Notes under the pieces: generated by a model
The model's database searches: none
Told to the model about the DNA's origin: nothing
The model's input: only the letters and a program-made list of their open reading frames with translations
Part shown: positions 48,992-58,963 of the stretch, piece after piece
Layout: the number at the start of each line of letters is the position of its first letter
How positions within the stretch are numbered: the stretch's first letter is position 1
From: an uncultured delta proteobacterium
GTDB lineage: Bacteria; Myxococcota_A; Polyangia; Polyangiales; B10-G4
DNA length: 64,000 bases
Assembly: GCA_963727445.1 (NCBI GenBank)
Contig: CAVSGI010000021.1
Coordinates: 352,001-416,000 of the forward strand
Reading direction: 5' to 3'
Position numbers and translations under genes: made by a program

Positions 48992-49184
48992 GGATCCTCC
49001 CGGCGGGGAACGTGGCCGATCGGGGACCCGGGCGCAAGGCAGTGCCGGATGGGGGCGGGACAAAGGTGGGCTGGGGGCTTCGGGACCAGGGTGCACGGCC
49101 CCTCGACCTTGAACCACCGCGCGCCGGAAAGCCCGCCGACTCCGCCGACTTGCGAGCCCTGGGTCATTGGATGACGATCGACGC

Positions 49185-50933
49185 ATGTCCGCGAATCTCA
49201 TCGCCCTCCAGAATCGCTTTCTCGGCCGGGGCGAGACCGTCTATGACCGCCTGGCGAGGCTCCGCGAGCAGAAAGGGGCCCTGGCCGACGAGGATCTCCT
49301 GGCCCTGGCCCGGGAGCTGAGCCTGCCGCCGGCCCACGTCCGGACCGTCGCGAAGTTCTACGACGAGCTGAAAGAGAGCGCGCCCGCGGCCGTGCACCTG
49401 AGGATCTGCAACGGGGAGGCGTGCGAGGTGGCGGGAGCGGACGGCTGCCGGGAGCGCGTCGCGGCCGCCGAGCTCGGCGACGACGTCGCGGTGGGCTACG
49501 TCACCTGCGTGGGGTACTGCGGGAGCGGGCCGAATGCGCTGGTGCAGATCGGCCACGCCGAAGCGGTGGTGTCGCTGCGCGGCGACGGGCTGGACGCGGT
49601 GGTGGCGGCGGTGAAGAAGGGGGCGCTGCCCGCCCTCGAGGAGCCGGACAACGCGCTCTACGATCCGCCCGAGGGCAAGAACGTGCTCATGCGCACCATG
49701 CGCGCCGAGCCGGGGCTCGAAGGCGCGAAGGCGGTGGGCGCCTATCGCGCGCTGGAGAAGGCGCGCGCGATGGATCCGGAGGCGGTGATCGCCGAGGTGA
49801 AGGCGTCGAAGATCCGCGGGCGCGGCGGCGCGGGATTTCCGGCGGGGATCAAGCTGTCGTCGGTGCGCGGCGCGCCCTCGAAGATGGACCGGGTCGTGGT
49901 GCTGAACGCCGACGAGGGGGACGCGGGCGCGTACATCGACAAGGAGCTGATGGAGCGGGCGCCCCACACGGTGATCGAGGGGATCGCCATCGCGGCCCAC
50001 GCCGTGGGAGCGAAGGAGGCGATCGTCTATCTGCGCGGCGAGTATCCGACCTGTCATCGCGTCTGGATCGAGGCGGTGAAGGAGGCGGAGACCGCCGCGC
50101 TCCTGGGCGAGCTCGAGATCCGGACGGTGCGCGGGCATGGCGCGTACATCTGCGGCGAGGAGACGAGCCTGCTCCGGAGCCTCGAGGGCGTGCCGGCGCA
50201 GGTGTCGCCGAAGCCGCCCTATCCGGCGGTGGAGGGGCTGCGCGGCGCGCCGACGCTGGTGAACAACGTGGAGACGCTCGCGGCGTTCCCCTTCATCGTG
50301 AACGAAGGTGGCGCTGCTTACGCGGCGCTCGGACGCGGGGAGAGCCGCGGCACCAAGCTGGTCAGCCTGAACACGGCGGTGGAGAAACCGGGGCTCTACG
50401 AGATCGAGCTCGGCACCACGCTGCGCACGCTGCTCTTCGAGATGGCGGGGGGGATGGCCGACGGCAAGAAGTTCAAGGCGGTGCAGATCGGCGGGCCCCT
50501 CGGCGGCATCTTCGGCGAGCAGCATCTCGACGTGCCCATGACCATCGAGGACCTCGCGGCGGCGGGCGGCATGCTGGGTCACGCGGGGGTGGTGGTGTAC
50601 GGCGACGACGTCGACCTGGTGAAGATCGGGCGCGGGCTGATGAAGTTCTGCGCGGTGGAGAGCTGCGGCAAGTGCTTCCCGTGCCGCATCGGGTCGGTGC
50701 GCGGGACCGAGCTCTTCGACAAGATCCTCGCCGGGGAGGGGAGCCAGGCGGACATCGATCTGCTCGCGGAGCTCGACGAGACGATGCGGTTGGGGTCGCT
50801 CTGTGCCCTCGGCGGCGCGATCCCGATGCCCATCGACAACCTGCTAGCCTGGTTCATGGACGACTTCGCGAAGTACGTCCCAGGAGCGAAGACTCCCGCC
50901 ATGGTCGCGGCGCGGTACGAGGTGAATCGATGA
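49185..50933 (+). CDS. NAD-dependent formate dehydrogenase diaphorase subunit (NuoE-NuoF / FdsG-FdsB fusion)
   Basis: CNGEAC/CVGYC [2Fe-2S]; RGRGGAGFP, NADEGD, YICGEETSL, ESCGKCFPCRIG. Confidence 0.9.
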   Translation: MSANLIALQNRFLGRGETVYDRLARLREQKGALADEDLLALARELSLPPAHVRTVAKFYDELKESAPAAVHLRICNGEACEVAGADGCRERVAAAELGDDVAVGYVTCVGYCGSGPNALVQIGHAEAVVSLRGDGLDAVVAAVKKGALPALEEPDNALYDPPEGKNVLMRTMRAEPGLEGAKAVGAYRALEKARAMDPEAVIAEVKASKIRGRGGAGFPAGIKLSSVRGAPSKMDRVVVLNADEGDAGAYIDKELMERAPHTVIEGIAIAAHAVGAKEAIVYLRGEYPTCHRVWIEAVKEAETAALLGELEIRTVRGHGAYICGEETSLLRSLEGVPAQVSPKPPYPAVEGLRGAPTLVNNVETLAAFPFIVNEGGAAYAALGRGESRGTKLVSLNTAVEKPGLYEIELGTTLRTLLFEMAGGMADGKKFKAVQIGGPLGGIFGEQHLDVPMTIEDLAAAGGMLGHAGVVVYGDDVDLVKIGRGLMKFCAVESCGKCFPCRIGSVRGTELFDKILAGEGSQADIDLLAELDETMRLGSLCALGGAIPMPIDNLLAWFMDDFAKYVPGAKTPAMVAARYEVNR

Positions 50934-53641
50934 CCATCCAGCTCAGAGTCGACGGTATCGACGTGGAGGTCGAGGAGGGCGCGTCCATCCTCGACGCAGC
51001 GCGCAGGGCCGAAAAGAACGTTCCGACCCTCTGTCAGTCCGACGCCCTGAAGGACTACGGCGCCTGCCGCATGTGCCTGGTGGAGGCGAACGGGCGGACG
51101 GTGGCCAGCTGTCACACGCCGGCGGCGGCGGGGATGGAGGTCACCACCGAGTCCGAGCAGCTCGCGCGGGTGCGCCTCAACATCATGGAGCTGATCGTCA
51201 GCGACCATCCGCTCGACTGTCTCGGCTGCGCGGCGAACAACCGCTGTGAGCTGCAGTCGACTGCCGCCGAGGTGGGCTTTCGCAAGGTTCGCTACCCCGA
51301 GGTGGCGCAGCACAGCCCGGCGCCCGACTTCTCTCACCCGTTCCTGAAGCTCGACATGGACAAGTGCATCGCGTGCGCGCGTTGCGTGCGCGTCTGTGAC
51401 GAGGTGCAGGGGAGCTTCATCCTGGGGATGGAGGGGCGCGGTTGGGACCTGCGCGTCATCTCGGGTAACGCGCAGTCCATGGCGGACGCCGACTGCACGA
51501 GCTGCGGTGCGTGCGCGGTGGAGTGCCCGGTGGGTGCGATCATGGATCGCGCCGAGGTGGCGCTCGGGGTGCCCGACGCGGTGACGACGACCACCTGCGC
51601 GTACTGTGGCGTGGGCTGCACCCTCGACGTGCACACCAAGGGAGAGCGCGTGGTGATGATCACGCCGAACCCGAACGGCTCGGCGAACCACGGCCACGCG
51701 TGCGTGAAGGGCCGCTTCGCCCACGAGTACGCGCGCTCGCCGGAGCGCATTCAGAGTCCGATGCTGCGCCAGGAGGACGGGAGCTTCGCGCCGATCGGGT
51801 GGGACGAAGCGCTCGAGATGGTCGCGAAGAAGCTCGAAGGCGTGGTGAAGGAGCACGGGCCACGGGCTTTCGCGGGGATCTCCTCGTCGCGCTGCACCAA
51901 CGAGGAGAACTACCTCTTTCAGAAGTTCATCCGCACCGTGGTGGGCACCAACAGCGTCGACAATTGCTCGCGCGTCTGCCACAGCCCGAGCGCCTTCGGC
52001 CTGAACAAGGCGCTGGGGACGGGGGCCGGCACGAACAGCTTCGAAGACATCGAGCACACGGACTGTGTGATGCTGGTGGGCGCGAACCCGACCGAGGCGC
52101 ATCCGGTCTACGGCGCGCGGATCCGGCAGGCGGTGCTGGGCGGCGCGAAGCTGATCGTGCTCGACCCGCGCAAGACGGAGCTGGCGCGGCTCGCGAACGT
52201 GCACATCTCGCTGAATCCGGGCAGCAACGTCGCGGTGATCAACGCGATGCAGAACGTGCTCCTCGAGGAGGGGCTCGTCGACGAGAAGTTCGTCCGCGAG
52301 CACACGGAGGGCTTCGAGAAGTATCGCGAGGAGATGAAGGACCAGACGCCCGAGTGGGCGGAAGAGATCAGCGGCGTGCCGGCCGATCAGATCCGCGAGG
52401 CGGCGCGGCTCTTCGCGAGCGTCGACCGCGCGCTGATCCTCTGGGGGCTCGGCGTGACCGAGGCGGCGCACGGGAGCAACGCCGTCTTCGGGCTGGTGAA
52501 CATCGGGTTGATGACTGGGAACATGGGGCGCCTCGGGACCGGAACCAATCCGATCCGCGGGCAGAACAACGTGCAGGGCGCCTCCGACATGGGCGCGCTG
52601 CCCAACGTCTTCACCGACTACCGTCCGGTCACCGATCCGGTCGCGCGCGAAGAGCATCTCGCCGTCTGGGGCAAGGAGCCGCCGTCGGACAAGGGGCTGC
52701 GCATCCCCGACATGTTCGACGCGTGCCATGAGGGACGGCTCAAGGCGATGTGGATCACCGCCGAGGACGTGGTGCAGTCCGACCCGAACACCGAGCACGT
52801 CGTGGGCGCGCTCGAGAAGCTGGATTTCCTGATCGTGCAGGAGATCTTCATGAGCGAGACGGCGAAGATCGCGCATCTCGTGTTGCCGGGCGCGACACAC
52901 CTCGAGAAGAACGGGACCTTCGTGAACTCGGATCGGCGCATCCAGCGCGTGCGCGCGGCGATCCCGCCGATGAAGGGCACGATGCCCGACGGCGACATCT
53001 ACCAGCTGGTGGCGGAGCGCATGGGCGCGGACCTCGGCTTCGGAACGCCGCCCGATCCAGCGAAGGTGATGGACGAGATCGCGGCGCTCTCACCGCTCTG
53101 GCGTGGTGTGAGCTACGCGCGGATCGAGGCGCCGGGGTCGTTCTTGCAGTGGCCGTGCACCAGCGCCGAGCATCCGGGCACGGCGATCGTTCACGAGGGC
53201 GGAGAGTTCTTGCGGGGCAGGGCGCTCTTCACGCCGACGCCGTGGCAGCCGCCCGCCGAGCTTCCCGACGCGGAGTATCCGTTCTTCCTGACCACGGGCC
53301 GCCAGCTCTTCCACTACAACGTCGGCACCCAGACGCGCCGCACGGCGGTGGTCGAGCTCACCAAGGCCGAAAAGGAGCGCGTGCGCCTTCACCCCAAGGA
53401 CGCGCGTCGCCTCGACATCCGCAATGGCGAGATGGTCCGCGTCGTCAGCCGCCGCGGATTCGTCGAAGTCGAAGCCGAGGTCACCAAGGCCACCAAGCCC
53501 GGCACTGTCTTCATGACCTTCCACTTCCCCGAGACCCGCACCAACCTCCTGCTCTCCTCCGCCGCCGACGAATACACCGGCTGCCCCGAGTACAAAGTCA
53601 GCGCCGTCCGCCTGGAAAAGCCCCCCCTAGCCGCCCAGTAA
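50930..53641 (+). CDS. fdhF: Formate dehydrogenase alpha subunit (FdsA/FdhF type, Cys ligand)
   Basis: N-terminal Fe-S clusters, CAYCGVGC, NCSRVCHSPS, RGQNNVQGASDMG, PEYKVSAV. Confidence 0.93.
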   Translation: MTIQLRVDGIDVEVEEGASILDAARRAEKNVPTLCQSDALKDYGACRMCLVEANGRTVASCHTPAAAGMEVTTESEQLARVRLNIMELIVSDHPLDCLGCAANNRCELQSTAAEVGFRKVRYPEVAQHSPAPDFSHPFLKLDMDKCIACARCVRVCDEVQGSFILGMEGRGWDLRVISGNAQSMADADCTSCGACAVECPVGAIMDRAEVALGVPDAVTTTTCAYCGVGCTLDVHTKGERVVMITPNPNGSANHGHACVKGRFAHEYARSPERIQSPMLRQEDGSFAPIGWDEALEMVAKKLEGVVKEHGPRAFAGISSSRCTNEENYLFQKFIRTVVGTNSVDNCSRVCHSPSAFGLNKALGTGAGTNSFEDIEHTDCVMLVGANPTEAHPVYGARIRQAVLGGAKLIVLDPRKTELARLANVHISLNPGSNVAVINAMQNVLLEEGLVDEKFVREHTEGFEKYREEMKDQTPEWAEEISGVPADQIREAARLFASVDRALILWGLGVTEAAHGSNAVFGLVNIGLMTGNMGRLGTGTNPIRGQNNVQGASDMGALPNVFTDYRPVTDPVAREEHLAVWGKEPPSDKGLRIPDMFDACHEGRLKAMWITAEDVVQSDPNTEHVVGALEKLDFLIVQEIFMSETAKIAHLVLPGATHLEKNGTFVNSDRRIQRVRAAIPPMKGTMPDGDIYQLVAERMGADLGFGTPPDPAKVMDEIAALSPLWRGVSYARIEAPGSFLQWPCTSAEHPGTAIVHEGGEFLRGRALFTPTPWQPPAELPDAEYPFFLTTGRQLFHYNVGTQTRRTAVVELTKAEKERVRLHPKDARRLDIRNGEMVRVVSRRGFVEVEAEVTKATKPGTVFMTFHFPETRTNLLLSSAADEYTGCPEYKVSAVRLEKPPLAAQ

Positions 53642-53785
53642 CGGGGACGGTCTACACTTTTCAACTTTCCCCCCAACCCTCTCGGCGGCCCCACGCTCCG
53701 GGCGCCCCTCAGAAGCGCCCCAACGGGGACGGTCTACACTTTTCAACTTTCCCCCCCCGCTCCGGGCGCCCCTCAGAAGCGCCCC
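53640..53785 (+). repeat. A-B-A-B repeat block, left boundary of the cassette
   Basis: A = AACGGGGACGGTCTACACTTTTCAACTTTCCCCCC at 53640-53674 and 53722-53756; B = CGCTCCGGGCGCCCCTCAGAAGCGCCCC at 53694-53721 and 53758-53785. Confidence 0.92.
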
Positions 53786-54702
53786 TGCACGCCGAGCCCA
53801 GCGACGTACCGCCCCACGATCGGCGTCACCCGAGCCGTCGGCGTGCTCCCGTCCGGCATCAGCCCCAGGTCGTATCTCTCCCACGCGCGCTCGTAGGGAG
53901 ACTCGATGAACGAGAGCGCGCCCATCATCGCGCCACCGATCGCCAGCCCGCCCCCCGTCACCAGCCCGATGGTTCGCGGCTCCTCGCGGTCCTCGAGCGC
54001 GCTCACGCCCATCGCGATGCCTCCGCCCAGCGCCAGGGCAAAGCCCGCCACGATCGAGATGTAGCGCGCGAGGCGGCTCACCTCTGCCATCGCCCGAAAC
54101 TCGCCTTCGAAGCGTCCGAGCGTCCGCGCGTCGAGCCCGCGCTCGCGCGCCGCCGCGAAGCGCGCGTAGAGCTCCTCGGCCGGCGTCTCGGCGGCGAAGT
54201 TGTAGATTCCGATGCCGACGCTCATCGCGCCAATCGCGATCATGGCAGCGCTCAAGCCGAGGGTCGCCTGCCGGCTACCGATCGTGAGCGTGTCGTCGGC
54301 CACGAACCACACGCCTATCCCCACCAGCGCGGCTCCCGCGACGATGCCGAGCGGCGCCGCGATGTAGCGGAGGACCCGCGCGCTTCCGTCGAAGGAGCCG
54401 AGCCAGGCGTCGAGGCGCGCGACGTCGACGTTTGTGAAGGCGGGCGAGAGCGTCATGCCGGCAACGGGCGGCGGCGGCGCCGGAGCGACTTCCTGCCCCG
54501 CCGGCGGCGGCATGGGGATCTCGTCCGCGTTCGAAGGTGCCACCTCCGCTTCGACCGACGAATCTGGCGGCGCTCCGCCCCCGCCCTCCTCGGCTGCGTC
54601 CCCACTCGCGTCGACCGTTTCCCCCGGCGGCTGTGCAGAGGCGCGAGCGGCCCATGCCGAGAGGAGCAAAGAACACGCGAGGAGAGCAGCGATCCGAGGC
54701 AT
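53773..54702 (-). CDS. Hypothetical exported/membrane protein
   Basis: Signal peptide, Pro-rich linker, four Gly-rich hydrophobic segments, ends GLGVQGRF. Confidence 0.7.
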   Translation of the reverse strand: MPRIAALLACSLLLSAWAARASAQPPGETVDASGDAAEEGGGGAPPDSSVEAEVAPSNADEIPMPPPAGQEVAPAPPPPVAGMTLSPAFTNVDVARLDAWLGSFDGSARVLRYIAAPLGIVAGAALVGIGVWFVADDTLTIGSRQATLGLSAAMIAIGAMSVGIGIYNFAAETPAEELYARFAAARERGLDARTLGRFEGEFRAMAEVSRLARYISIVAGFALALGGGIAMGVSALEDREEPRTIGLVTGGGLAIGGAMMGALSFIESPYERAWERYDLGLMPDGSTPTARVTPIVGRYVAGLGVQGRF

Positions 54703-54766
54703 GACCCGACGTGTAGCAGCGACGCAGCAGCCGTCCACGCGACCGCCGGTGTGGCATCCTGCGCCC

Positions 54767-55816
54767 ATGCGTCGCCCGCGCGCCACGATCGCGTTGCTTT
54801 CGCTGCTGCCCCTTCTCGGCGTGTCCGCGTGCGGGGACGATCAGAGCGCCCCCGGGACCGAATCGCCGGCCGCGTCGGATCAAGAGTTGCCCCCCGCTGA
54901 CGAAACGCCCGCGGAGCCATCGCCAACCCCGCCACCGGAGCCGACCGCCGACGCGCCCTCCAACCCCGAGCCGGCCTCCGAGTCGCCCACCCTCGACAGC
55001 GCCCAGGCCATTCGCGCCGCCCTCATCGCTGCGCGACCGTCTCCCGCTGCCGTCTGGGCGCTCACCGATCCCGACCGCGGTCTGGATCTCGACTTCAACT
55101 GGGCCGTCGGCCATTTCGTTTACACCGCGTGCAGCACCGAGGACCTCGCGACCTGGCGTGAGTGGGCGCGCGAAGACGGGCTCTCCTTCTACCGCATCGC
55201 CGAGAGCGATCCGTTTCAGTGCACGTCCGACCTATCGCTCTGCGCGTCGTGCCCCGAGGACATCTCCACCTGCGAGCGCGGCAGCGTCTTCGAGCTCGCG
55301 ACCGATGGCGACGGGCGGCGCTATCTCTACGGCGTGATCATGGCGCCCGCGCGCTCGGAGGCGCTGTGGGATCTGACGCCGACGACGCTCGAGGGCGCAC
55401 GCCGCGCTCGGGTCGATCTCGGCTCCGCTGCTGAGACGGGTGCGAAGTGCGCGATTCGCAATCAATTGCTCGGAGGCGATATCGATTCGCTGTGGGTCGA
55501 GCACGTGCCCGGCGCGGGTGCGCGCGAGGTGCGTCACCTCGAGGGTGATGAGGCGCGAGACTTCGCGCGCGACCTCGGGGCGCGCTTCGGCCTGTCCGCG
55601 TATTGTCTCGCGGAGAATTGCGTCGCGGCGGGCGACGAGGGCGAGCTCTTCGGCGTGTACTACCGACGCGGGCGTCGGCGTCGGCGTCGTCCGCCTCCGG
55701 CGCCACAGCTGACACTCGTCACGTACGGACCGGCTGCGTGCGAGGGGTGCGCGCCGGAGCCGTCGGCGGAGGTGCGACGTGAGGCGCGGCGCCGGCGCAG
55801 ACGACGACGGAGGTAG
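54767..55816 (+). CDS. Hypothetical lipoprotein with Arg-rich tracts
   Basis: VSAC lipobox, Pro/Glu linker, Cys pairs, RRGRRRRRR and terminal poly-Arg. Confidence 0.7.
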   Translation: MRRPRATIALLSLLPLLGVSACGDDQSAPGTESPAASDQELPPADETPAEPSPTPPPEPTADAPSNPEPASESPTLDSAQAIRAALIAARPSPAAVWALTDPDRGLDLDFNWAVGHFVYTACSTEDLATWREWAREDGLSFYRIAESDPFQCTSDLSLCASCPEDISTCERGSVFELATDGDGRRYLYGVIMAPARSEALWDLTPTTLEGARRARVDLGSAAETGAKCAIRNQLLGGDIDSLWVEHVPGAGAREVRHLEGDEARDFARDLGARFGLSAYCLAENCVAAGDEGELFGVYYRRGRRRRRRPPPAPQLTLVTYGPAACEGCAPEPSAEVRREARRRRRRRRR

Positions 55817-55822
55817 AGCGCC

Positions 55823-55849
55823 GAAAGTTGAAAAGTGTAGACCGTCCCC
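55823..55849 (-). repeat. Inverted copy of repeat A core, right boundary of the cassette
   Basis: GAAAGTTGAAAAGTGTAGACCGTCCCC is the exact reverse complement of 53643-53669. Confidence 0.92.
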
Positions 55850-57346
55850 TTAGGGGATGGTCCAGGTGGTGCCTTCGGGGGAGTCGAGGAGCTCGACGCC
55901 GAGGGCGGTGAGGTCGGCGCGGAGGGTGTCGGCTTTTTCGAAGTCCTTGGCGGCGCGGGCGGCGGCGCGGGCGGCGATCTTTTCTTCGACGAGGGCGGCG
56001 TCGACGCCTTTGGCGGCGGCGCGGCGGTCGCGGATGCCGAGCAGAACGCCGTCGGCGTCCTTCTGGCCGAGGCCGGTCTCGGCCTCGAGGCGCGAAAAGC
56101 CTGCCTTCGCTGCCTCGACCCAGCTCGTCGCGACCTTGCCCTTCTTGCCCTTCGCCTTTTCGGCCAGCTCGTTCACCGCCTTCAAGAACGCGTTCACCTC
56201 GGCGAGGGCCGCCGGGAAGTTCAGGTCCTCGTCGAGCACGGCCGTGAGCTTCTCACCGAACTTCGCGAGCTCCTCCGGCACAGCCTCGTCCTTGTCGACG
56301 ATGCGCCCCGCCGGGATCTGCGACAGCCGCTTCTTGGCGTTGTAGAGATACTCGACGCGCCGCTCCGCCTCCTCGAACTGCGGGAAGCCCGTGATGTTGC
56401 CCTCGTCGTCCACCGTCCAGTCGAGGTTCAGCGGCGCGCGGTAGTGGCTCGTCATGTTGAACCAACGCACCGCCTCGGGGTCCACGCGCTTGTAGAGCTC
56501 CCGCGCCGTGAAGAAGTTGCCGAGGCTCTTCGACATCTTCTCCTTGTTCACCTCGATGAAGCCGTTGTGCACCCAGAAGCGCGCCATCTGCTTGCCGGTC
56601 GCGGCTTCGCTCTGCGCGATCTCGTTCTCGTGATGCGGAAACACCAGGTCGAGCCCGCCGCCGTGCAGGTCGAAGCTCTCCCCCAGGTGCGTCATGCTCA
56701 TCGCCGAGCACTCGATGTGCCACCCCGGTCGTCCCGGCCCCCATGGGCTCGGCCAGCTCGGGTCCCCTTCGGTCGCCGCCTTCCACAACGCGAAGTCCGC
56801 CGGGTTCTCCTTCTTGGCGAGCTCTGCGTCGCTCGTCCGCCCGCTCGCCCCACTCTCGTGGTCTTCCATCTTACGGTGGCTGAGCTTGCCGTACTCGGGG
56901 AACGCCGACACCCGGAAGTACACGTCGCCTCCCGACTCGTAGGCGGCGCCCTTGTCGATGAGCTTCTGAATCAGCTCGTGGATCTGCGTCAGGTGCTCGC
57001 TCACCCGCGGCTCGATGTCGGGGTCGACGTTGCCGACCGCCCGCATGTCTTCCTGGTACGCCTTCTCGAATCGCTTCGCGAGCTCGGTCGGCTCTTCACC
57101 GTTTTCCTTGCTGCGCTTGATGATCTTGTCGTCGATGTCGGTGACGTTGCGGACGAAGGTGACCTTCATGCCGTTCGCCCTCAGGTGGCGGACCAACAGG
57201 TCGTAGACCGTCGCCGACCGGACGTGCCCCAGGTGGGCGTAGTCATAAACCGTCGGCCCACAGTAGTAGACCCTGGCGTGGCCCGGCTCGGCCGTCTCGA
57301 AAGGCTCCTTCTTGCTCGTCAGGGTGTTGTAGAGGCGCAAAGTCAT
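55850..57346 (-). CDS. cysS: Cysteine--tRNA ligase
   Basis: CGPTVYDYAHLGH, DFALWK, GRPGWHIECSAM, KMSKSLGN. Confidence 0.97.
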   Translation of the reverse strand: MTLRLYNTLTSKKEPFETAEPGHARVYYCGPTVYDYAHLGHVRSATVYDLLVRHLRANGMKVTFVRNVTDIDDKIIKRSKENGEEPTELAKRFEKAYQEDMRAVGNVDPDIEPRVSEHLTQIHELIQKLIDKGAAYESGGDVYFRVSAFPEYGKLSHRKMEDHESGASGRTSDAELAKKENPADFALWKAATEGDPSWPSPWGPGRPGWHIECSAMSMTHLGESFDLHGGGLDLVFPHHENEIAQSEAATGKQMARFWVHNGFIEVNKEKMSKSLGNFFTARELYKRVDPEAVRWFNMTSHYRAPLNLDWTVDDEGNITGFPQFEEAERRVEYLYNAKKRLSQIPAGRIVDKDEAVPEELAKFGEKLTAVLDEDLNFPAALAEVNAFLKAVNELAEKAKGKKGKVATSWVEAAKAGFSRLEAETGLGQKDADGVLLGIRDRRAAAKGVDAALVEEKIAARAAARAAKDFEKADTLRADLTALGVELLDSPEGTTWTIP

Positions 57347-57410
57347 GAGGCGGCACTTGTAACGCACGCCCCCCACCTTGGCCACCCACGGACCGTGTAA
57401 GCTCGGACCC

Positions 57411-58073
57411 ATGAGCGAAGAGCGGCGCTTCGCATACCTCCACGGCTTCGCCTCCAGCCCCAGCTCCAAGAAGGGGCTCGCGCTGAGGCACCGTTTCGCT
57501 CAGCGGGGCGTGACGCTCGAGCTCCCCGATCTCAATCAACCCAGCTTCGAAGAGATCAGCCACGACGCCTGCCTCGGTGCCCTCGACGCCATGGATCGCA
57601 TGCAGGCCCAGGACACCGGCGCCCGCTGGTGCCTCATCGGTTCGAGCTTCGGAGGCTGGCTCGCCGCCCGGTGGGCCGAGCTCCATCCCGAACGCGTCGA
57701 GCGCATGGTGCTCCTTTGTCCGGGCTTCGATCTCGCGCAGCGCTGGCCCGAGATCCTCGGCGGCGAGCAGATGGCGAAGTGGGGCACCGAGGGCCACCTC
57801 TACATGCAGGACGCGACCGGCACCTACGCGCCCGTTCACTACGGCTTCTACGTCGAGGCGCTGCGGCAGCCCGGCCGCCCCCGAGTCCCCTGCCCGACCC
57901 TCATCATCCACGGCACCCGCGACGAGGTGGTCCCCATCACCTCCTCACGAGACTACGCGGCGGCCCACGGGCTGCCGCTGCTCGAGGTCGACGACGATCA
58001 CGGGCTCGCCGCCTCCGTCGACCGTATCGCAGCAGCTACTTTCGACCACTTCGGTTTGGGCGCGAGCACTTGA
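57411..58073 (+). CDS. YqiA/YcfP-family alpha/beta hydrolase
   Basis: YLHGFASSP, GSSFGG, HGTRDEVV, DDHGL. Confidence 0.88.
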   Translation: MSEERRFAYLHGFASSPSSKKGLALRHRFAQRGVTLELPDLNQPSFEEISHDACLGALDAMDRMQAQDTGARWCLIGSSFGGWLAARWAELHPERVERMVLLCPGFDLAQRWPEILGGEQMAKWGTEGHLYMQDATGTYAPVHYGFYVEALRQPGRPRVPCPTLIIHGTRDEVVPITSSRDYAAAHGLPLLEVDDDHGLAASVDRIAAATFDHFGLGAST

Positions 58074-58179
58074 AGAGGCGCCTGGCATCACCGCCGGTGG
58101 CTCCCAACGTGACCACTTCGTGACGGCCCCTCACCTCGAATTGTCACGTCTTTTCGCCAGACCCACCGCCGGCCGCACT

Positions 58180-58195
58180 CGGCACGCCGTTCGCA
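58180..58195 (+). promoter_or_regulatory. Putative sigma-54 promoter of the PP2C gene
   Basis: CGGCACGCCGTTCGCA has GG-N10-GC spacing, 30 nt upstream of the start. Confidence 0.5.
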
Positions 58196-58225
58196 AACTC
58201 ACGGTCCAAGCTTGTGGAGGATGCC

Positions 58226-58963
58226 GTGAAGTCTCGAGGTTTCGGACAGACGCACATCGGGGGACGAGAAAACAACGAGGACGCGCTCCTCGTCGCTGAG
58301 AAACTCGGCCTCTACGTCGTCGCGGACGGGATGGGCGGCTACGAGGGAGGCGAGATCGCCTCCCAGATGACCGTCGAAGGTCTCCACCGCTTCTACGACA
58401 TCGTGGGGCCCGACGGAGAGGTCGGCATGACCACGCCCGGCTCCGGGGACCGCACGGTCGCCGAAGACATGATGCGCCTCGCGATCCGTCAGGCCAGCCA
58501 CGACATCGAGAAGATGCGCCACGGCCGTCTCGAGTCGATGGGCTCCACCGTCGCCGCGGTGCTCCTTCGCCAGGACAAGGCGCTCATCGCTCACGTTGGT
58601 GACAGCCGCGTCTATCGCATGCGGCGCGGCGTCCTCGAGCGCATGACGCGCGATCATTCGCTCTACGCGGAGCTCGAGGAGGCCGGCGTCGTCTCCGTGG
58701 GCAGCCTCGCCAGCCGCAACGTGATCACCCGTGCGGTCGGTGTTCCCGGATACGCAGTGCCCGACGTCCGCATCGTCGACACCCGGCCCGGCGACACTTT
58801 CTTGATGTGCAGCGACGGCCTCACCGACGACGTCCCCGACGGCGACATCGCCGAGGTACTCGCCGCCTTCGAGCCGAAGCTCGCCGCCGAGCAGCTCGTC
58901 CAGCGCGCCTGGCTCGCAGGCGCGTCGGACAACATCACCTGCGTCGTCGCCCGCGTCTGCTGA
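58226..58963 (+). CDS. PP2C-family Ser/Thr phosphatase
   Basis: NNED, VADGMGG, HVGDSRVY, TRDHS, CSDGL, DNIT. Confidence 0.93.
   Translation: MKSRGFGQTHIGGRENNEDALLVAEKLGLYVVADGMGGYEGGEIASQMTVEGLHRFYDIVGPDGEVGMTTPGSGDRTVAEDMMRLAIRQASHDIEKMRHGRLESMGSTVAAVLLRQDKALIAHVGDSRVYRMRRGVLERMTRDHSLYAELEEAGVVSVGSLASRNVITRAVGVPGYAVPDVRIVDTRPGDTFLMCSDGLTDDVPDGDIAEVLAAFEPKLAAEQLVQRAWLAGASDNITCVVARVC

Follow-up and report, generated by a model that had tools for sequence, protein, structure and literature searches.

Two hypothetical genes in the genome of an uncultured delta proteobacterium of the order Polyangiales (contig CAVSGI010000021.1) stand between facing copies of a 27-bp repeat that abut the stop codons of fdhA and cysS, which raises the question of whether the repeats bound an active exchange site for surface genes, as an earlier note on this DNA had proposed, or something older and quieter. 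The locus lies within the 64,000-nucleotide stretch that was analysed (positions 352,001 to 416,000 of the contig; hereafter the window). Judging by sequence identity, the 27-mer is the end sequence, or terminal inverted repeat (TIR), of a Y1/HUH transposase element of TIRYT type that lies elsewhere in the same genome, on contig C9. With slightly better than even confidence, we read the locus as one old, fixed TIR pair holding two single-copy genes and not as an active exchange site. More surprising than the cassette is a strand-specific shift in silent-site composition, a halo around the TIRs that is seen here and in two further TIR sets.

The three copies of the 27-mer, docked at the stops of fdhA and cysS with two divergent hypothetical genes between them, were found exactly where the earlier note had placed them, and the number of copies expected by chance in the window is 0 (100 shuffles). 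The features, in window positions, are as follows.

50930..53641, plus strand: fdhA, formate dehydrogenase alpha subunit, the left host gene (TIGR01591, 799.8 bits, cut-off 666)
53643..53669, plus strand: TIR copy 1, the outer left end, with its GGGG end towards fdhA; identical to the TIR pair that flanks the C9 Y1 gene
53689..53721, plus strand: duplicated 33-nt inner-flank piece that includes a copy of the gene A stop codon; direct repeat of 53753-53785 (97%)
53725..53751, plus strand: TIR copy 2, a local tandem duplicate of copy 1
53773..54702, minus strand: gene A, 309 aa, no known family
54767..55816, plus strand: gene B, 349 aa, no known family
55823..55849, minus strand: TIR copy 3, the right end, with its GGGG end against the cysS stop and 6 nt from the gene B stop
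55850..57343, minus strand: cysS, cysteinyl-tRNA synthetase, the right host gene (PF01406, E 3e-123)

The fdhA stop is a TAA (53639-53641) followed by a gap of 1 nt and then TIR copy 1, while the cysS stop, also a TAA (55850-55852), is flush with TIR copy 3. The repeat arms are 2071 nt apart, and the TIR ends match the family consensus at every position. No transposase gene lies between them, as the earlier note had said, and no Y1 match was found in the window. The cargo shows no similarity to the interior of the C9 transposase locus, and no target-site duplication was seen. Since the duplicated 33-nt piece includes the gene A stop, the second left TIR copy arose with gene A already present. 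The gene before fdhA (49167-50933) seems, by its motifs, to resemble a fused NuoE/NuoF-type (gamma-beta) subunit.

The repeat and its transposase

In this genome (G000, 9.47 Mb; C-numbers denote contigs), TIRs identical to the 27-mer flank a Y1/HUH gene at C9:566257-567771 in the layout >>>> gene <<<, with both ends 1 nt from the stops of convergent genes. The gene matches Y1_Tnp at 26.4 bits (cut-off 23), its open reading frame (ORF) holds an HIH motif and a YVSNNP motif of the class-2 Y---NP form, and the downstream frame matches Bac_DnaA_C with an E value of 1.3e-5, at 25.6 bits below the gathering score of 31.5. In this assembly the transposase gene carries a frameshift near residue 196, as judged against its intact orthologue in a same-genus sister genome (G001), where it is a single ORF of 334 aa at a different locus with its own 26-bp TIR variant. 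By domain order and motif, the element matches the TIRtron/TIRYT group, subclass 2.1.2. The start motif GGGG[AT][CG]A[CG] is given in the available parts of the literature for the majority of TIRs, not all, and all three TIR types found here match it at 7 of 8 positions, with G, not A, at position 7.

The earlier note had likened the 27-mer to repetitive extragenic palindrome (REP) elements with a GTAG on one strand, processed by REP-associated tyrosine transposases (RAYTs). Its link to a RAYT-related HUH nuclease elsewhere in the genome holds, given the C9 gene. The GTAG-type REP assignment was rejected in favor of a TIRYT-type TIR, since the 27-mer yields no stable fold on either strand and its GTAG is internal and absent from the sister genome's variant. 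Matches to NF047646 (REP_Tyr_transpos) reached 25.3 and 31.1 bits, under the cut-off of 80.

A second TIRYT element, this one intact (327 aa), lies at C10:487559-488613 (L004:1392-2446). Its TIR also begins with GGGG but differs in sequence; on the left the element is docked just past a stop codon, and on the right it runs up to a ligA-like 3' end. Two further Y1/HUH genes, L002:552-2428 (C9:168 kb) and L001:913-1114, are located beside repeat arrays with a 6- or 12-nt period, the first being flanked by such arrays on both sides, with 117-nt inverted arms also present there, 1.3 kb apart. Runs of hexamer microsatellites are numerous in the sister genome, where they often coincide with contig ends.

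Copies, stop docking and silent sites

The genome-wide search that the earlier note had suggested, with orientation and distance to stops tabulated, returned 176 copies when up to 4 mismatches were allowed, 126 of them exact; they fall into 55 clusters, most of which are short doublets. Facing pairs occur in 37 of the 55, 36 of them with spacers of 15-44 bp and one with 104 bp, and a spacer of about 43 bp is common to nineteen clusters by a heuristic count. Tandem copies are local duplications of the outer tail, the TIR and the inner head, so that a flank duplication of the same kind as the window's 33-nt piece lies between them; this is the anatomy that nick-primed amplification, as described in the available part of PMC3333891, would give. 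A second TIR family, that of the C10 element, comprises 67 copies in 24 clusters. Two lone copies of the 27-mer, at C21:174381 and C6:189756, lie about 60-100 nt from tRNA-like sequences.

Gene calls were made with a crude caller whose starts and short genes are unreliable. On these calls, 28 of the 55 clusters occupy convergent junctions, a type that makes up 1349 of 7213 junctions in the whole genome. Of the 91 outward ends, 28 are found 0-3 nt past a stop, as compared with about 0.7% of random intergenic positions. Docking at stops, which had been taken as a sign that the window site is special, is therefore generic to the family and marks no special site. The docked stops are TAA in 15 of 28 cases versus 226 of 7240 stops overall, and four TAA-docked genes (cysS, fdhA and those at C8:197201 and C13:426960) have sister-genome orthologues that end in TGA or TAG. 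Docking is rarer elsewhere, at 6 of 54 ends in the sister genome and 4 of 44 in the second TIR family.

The halo was measured at fourfold sites near the outward flanks, as C versus G on the GGGG strand. Over all 91 outward flanks, genes on the GGGG strand have C at 1099 of 1405 fourfold sites in the first 150 nt (control 0.52), genes on the other strand have G at 63 of 105 (sense G in controls about 0.36), and beyond 300 nt the shift reverses. The two host genes in the window show it strongly, over roughly their final 300 nt: within 250 nt of the stop, C occupies 43 of the 46 fourfold sites with C or G in fdhA and 53 of 55 in cysS, and in the last 150 nt the counts are 26 of 30 and 33 of 33, with both genes G-rich by 300-600 nt. 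Such near-saturated silent sites beside the window repeats imply long residence. The second TIR family shows a weaker shift (935 of 1470, expected 0.55).

Comparison of orthologues gave the direction of change. In ten flanks of this genome with sister-genome orthologues there were 145 G>C versus 51 C>G changes near the repeats and 124 versus 215 far from them; 36 sister-genome flanks gave 406 versus 299 near the repeats, with no distinct zone further out; and 108 control pieces gave 1161 versus 1141, most of the polarisations resting on a single outgroup. The shift peaks at docked, unique-spacer or lone ends (0.84-0.86), whereas undocked ends of the young 43-bp-spacer family, which have fewer coding sites nearby, do not have it (305 of 515, or 0.59, expected 0.57). 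Given this contrast, the halo behaves as a clock. At twofold purine sites A is raised (105 of 318, versus 0.18). From these patterns, it is likely that the silent-site shift records enzyme activity, although a preference for targets on C-rich strands, or selection acting on RNA, may account for it instead.

One pair or two sites

Several observations support a single pair in the window. Within the 27-bp family, facing ends around genes occur only at the C9 transposase locus and in the window, and the probability that at least one facing pair within 2.5 kb arises by chance from the 15 one-direction clusters is about 0.01, a figure that is post hoc. The halo also reaches the cargo: at the inner 3' ends of A and B, C on the adjacent TIR strand accounts for 25 of 35 and 24 of 34 sites (expected 0.41; p 3e-4 and 5e-4), and when 5294 genes are ranked by how G-rich their 3' ends are, A and B stand in the top 0.5% and 0.8%, the gene A sense strand being G-rich there. 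In contrast, eight other one-direction clusters with scorable inner sites show no shift (92 of 197, p 0.29). Two decayed doublets are disfavored because they would leave the opposite shift in A and B, whereas one interior insertion explains both missing partner ends. TIR ends also appear to be normally paired, since all 54 copies in the sister genome are accounted for by 26 doublets, each about 60 bp long, and the pair around the transposase gene, with no lone copies. For five of these 26 doublets, the two flanks map to within about 100 nt of one another in our genome, with no repeat nearby; doublets thus move. One sister-genome doublet, L043:6264-6324 (C437), lies at about the position orthologous to the C10:328703 cluster, which suggests a shared old site whose repeats changed along with the enzyme.

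Neither cargo gene has a significant Pfam or NCBIfam match. Both products are predicted to be envelope proteins: as read from the sequence and alignments, gene A has a predicted signal peptide, a Pro-rich linker and four hydrophobic segments, and gene B is a predicted Cys-rich lipoprotein with a lipobox-like VSAC. The A+B cargo is single-copy in this genome, where gene A has two distant paralogues. Database relatives number eight for A (55-66%) and six for B (45-69%), in records named Myxococcota, Sandaracinaceae or Deltaproteobacteria. The sister genome, which is 86% complete, has no one-to-one orthologue of A and a 64% orthologue of B without TIRs; the codon score of B falls at the 1.4th percentile. 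A further alignment search with A found seven loci at 27-36%, alignment of B across 300 genomes of the class with a stricter first filter found none, and a metagenome scan with B returned two weak loci of about 30 residues. In 25 fetched loci of A or B relatives, A was re-found in 13, B in three and neither in nine, and in none of the 25 did A and B occur together, nor was cysS, fdhA or a TIR-like pair in facing orientation present.

The interval between fdhA and cysS was compared in relatives and in reads, as had been suggested; the sister genome is too rearranged to be informative, and no read contig bridges the repeats. A strict repeat pattern was found in 0 of 40 relatives, a looser one in the sister genome and in 0 of 299 other genomes of the order, and a search of a contig database, in which close genomes are possibly not covered, gave 0 matches. 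Of 24 convergent junctions examined, 11 have both orthologues in the sister genome, and just 4 of these are still adjacent there; with the other seven broken too, that genome cannot give the ancestral state. In another relative, G005, orthologues of the window genes at about 25-31.5 kb follow about 3.7 kb after cysS (L006; compared with window 55850-58900), and a 24-kb block with the fdh genes is extra in our genome relative to G005. The reads came from two low-depth runs (word shares 0.20 and 0.05; assembled pieces at depth 2-3). Related-strain contigs match A, B and the stretch that joins the two genes at about 94-100% identity; no read contig in these runs bridges a repeat junction, and no empty or alternative allele was seen in them. 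Three read joints that skip the cargo were rejected as empty sites, having 17-39 other letters, one of them equal to the C20:193601 doublet spacer, and belong to other doublets.

A number of points weigh against a single old pair or against the halo that dates it. Besides the post hoc nature of the facing-pair figure, the single outgroup behind most polarisations and the sparse coding sites beside undocked ends, all 13 one-direction clusters other than the two in the window have no partner, and several of them are stop-docked with a convergent gene 6-30 nt away, like the window's right end. At the one-direction cluster C13:281591, about 14 nt of the inner flank and 9 nt of the outer flank recur at the right half of the C13:224053 doublet, 57 kb away, so half-elements or single ends may be copied alone with short flanks. 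Inside three transposase genes the inner shift is clear only at the 5' end, and the inner shift at A and B may reflect site age, not pairing. Without any repeat, the sister genome's cysS is already C-rich (49 C and 8 G in the last 300 nt), and polarised G>A changes are not in excess in the flanks of our genome (46 versus 44), which weakens the proposed step from other stops to TAA. The 64% identity of gene B lies in the normal range (24th percentile of 111 sister-genome hits). In no relative was fdhA seen beside cysS or an empty site found, and cysS, fdhA and B have other neighbors in the sister genome. Finally, the available parts of the literature report no nicking for any TIRYT.

The best-surviving alternative, that two independent lone TIR copies settled at neighboring convergent junctions around resident genes, is a real possibility that we hold to be clearly less probable than a single pair. 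Because A and B are divergent, both flanks are convergent, i.e., the preferred sites of the family (28 of 55 clusters), and docking at the host stops would fix the inward orientation. The 13 partnerless clusters exist, clusters clump regionally (14 neighbors within 30 kb versus 8 expected, p 0.011), and gene B has an ordinary sister-genome orthologue. The two clusters on C10 that lie 8.1 kb apart, rejected as a further cassette, have between them DNA that is mostly syntenic host sequence in the sister genome. However, this alternative has to accept the chance figure of about 0.01 and the inner shift in both A and B, which other lone clusters do not show, and there are no lone copies among the 54 in the sister genome.

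A rearrangement, by deletion or translocation, that joined halves of two once-distant elements around A and B seems improbable to us. Convergent junctions are often broken between the two genomes, and the genes that in G005 follow cysS lie about 24 kb off in the window, yet recombination of complete doublets would be reasoned to give doublets, not halves, at least two further events are required, and the inner shift on both sides is left unexplained.

An active, non-autonomous site that exchanges surface genes and is mobilized in trans, as first proposed, we regard as least probable, highly doubtful even though the anatomy is that of the transposase locus, the ends equal the family consensus, B has atypical codon use and A lacks a one-to-one sister-genome orthologue, because the cargo is single-copy and its ends bear the long-residence shift, the transposase locus is the only other gene-enclosing pair, no second passenger-carrying pair occurs in the 55 + 24 clusters of this genome or the 27 of the sister genome, none of the 25 fetched loci has a facing TIR-like pair, related-strain contigs keep the same A, B and A/B junction, and the cognate transposase is frameshifted in this assembly. 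The earlier view of the two window sites as one unit probably survives as one pair, without the exchange. Elsewhere, at C2:159352-163142, a doublet and a lone copy lie 3.7 kb apart in a region with no sister-genome match except one flank gene, which makes it a possible second cargo-bearing site.

Known systems and a possible mechanism

Miniature inverted-repeat transposable elements (MITEs) and other non-autonomous TIR cassettes with passengers have inverted ends, no transposase and coding cargo. The window is like them in all three respects; it differs in that no target-site duplication, second copy or empty site was seen and in that the enzyme is HUH, not DDE.

Closer relatives are the TIRtron/TIRYT elements and their dispersed TIR families (Di Nocera et al. 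2013, PMC3733652; subclass 2.1.2 in Quentin et al. 2018, 10.1101/279083), a subclass equated with RAYT group 1 (Bertels et al. 2017, PMC5581495); these and the following statements refer to the available portions of the cited papers. Among the literature searched, the term TIRYT is confined to the first two. Shared features are a Y1/HUH gene with a Y---NP motif and a C-terminal DnaA_C-like helix-turn-helix, and non-palindromic, GGGG-starting inverted repeats present as singles, dimers and groups. Here, however, there are 176 copies, more than in the "moderately abundant" published families, motif position 7 is G and not A, one pair encloses two passenger genes, and stop docking with a TAA excess and the silent-site halo are undescribed for published TIRs in those portions. 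We found no paper on a halo around TIRs or on TIR pairs with passenger genes in the literature searched, whose scope takes in few subscription papers.

The family also resembles REPs, bacterial interspersed mosaic elements (BIMEs) and REPINs with their TnpA-REP enzyme, a RAYT, as in the E. coli REPtron (PMC3333891), in its doublets and tandem arrays, extragenic and convergent bias and single cognate nuclease gene, and REP ends often supply stop codons (PMC3733652). Unlike a REP, the 27-mer forms no hairpin with a GTAG guide at its 5' foot. In E. coli, tnpA-REP has been excised leaving BIMEs or replaced by the two-gene hicAB module (PMC3333891); the hicAB replacement loses the BIMEs, whereas the window keeps both ends. 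The repeat thus belongs to a known but little-studied kind, and the passenger-carrying pair and the halo set the variant apart.

Repeat identity, family size and anatomy, family-wide docking, local tandem duplication and the strand-specific silent shift are direct observations, and we infer from them the following enzymatic steps. A TIR doublet or a complete TIR-transposase-TIR unit would have settled at a convergent junction, and in a single event A+B would have come to lie inside it, either inserted into the spacer or in place of the transposase gene. Working in trans, the transposase would have nicked each end over and over on its GGGG strand. Resynthesis primed from these nicks, as in the BIME model of Ton-Hoang 2012 (PMC3333891), could then have produced tandem copies with duplicated flank while keeping the ends identical, and strand-asymmetric processing would bias the DNA to C and away from G within about 300 nt and in reverse further out. 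Small deletions beside the ends would be tolerated as far as the stop codon and no further, so that old ends would finish up docked at stops, and loss of G would turn TGA or TAG into TAA. That TIRYTs have long nicked their ends in this way, with asymmetric synthesis rewriting about 300 nt, trimming up to the stop and creating TAA, and with pairs fixing passengers, we put forward tentatively, as an idea more likely wrong than right.

Taken alone, the cassette is a modest finding, i.e., one fixed passenger-carrying derivative of a named, biochemically unstudied element. The halo carries more weight and bears on the in vivo role of RAYT/TIRYT nucleases, in that its strand-specific, two-zone substitution footprint gives the cut strand, the patch length and a ranking of sites by age from sequence alone. 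If this scheme is true, TIRs would be sequence-programmed local mutators with a readable clock.

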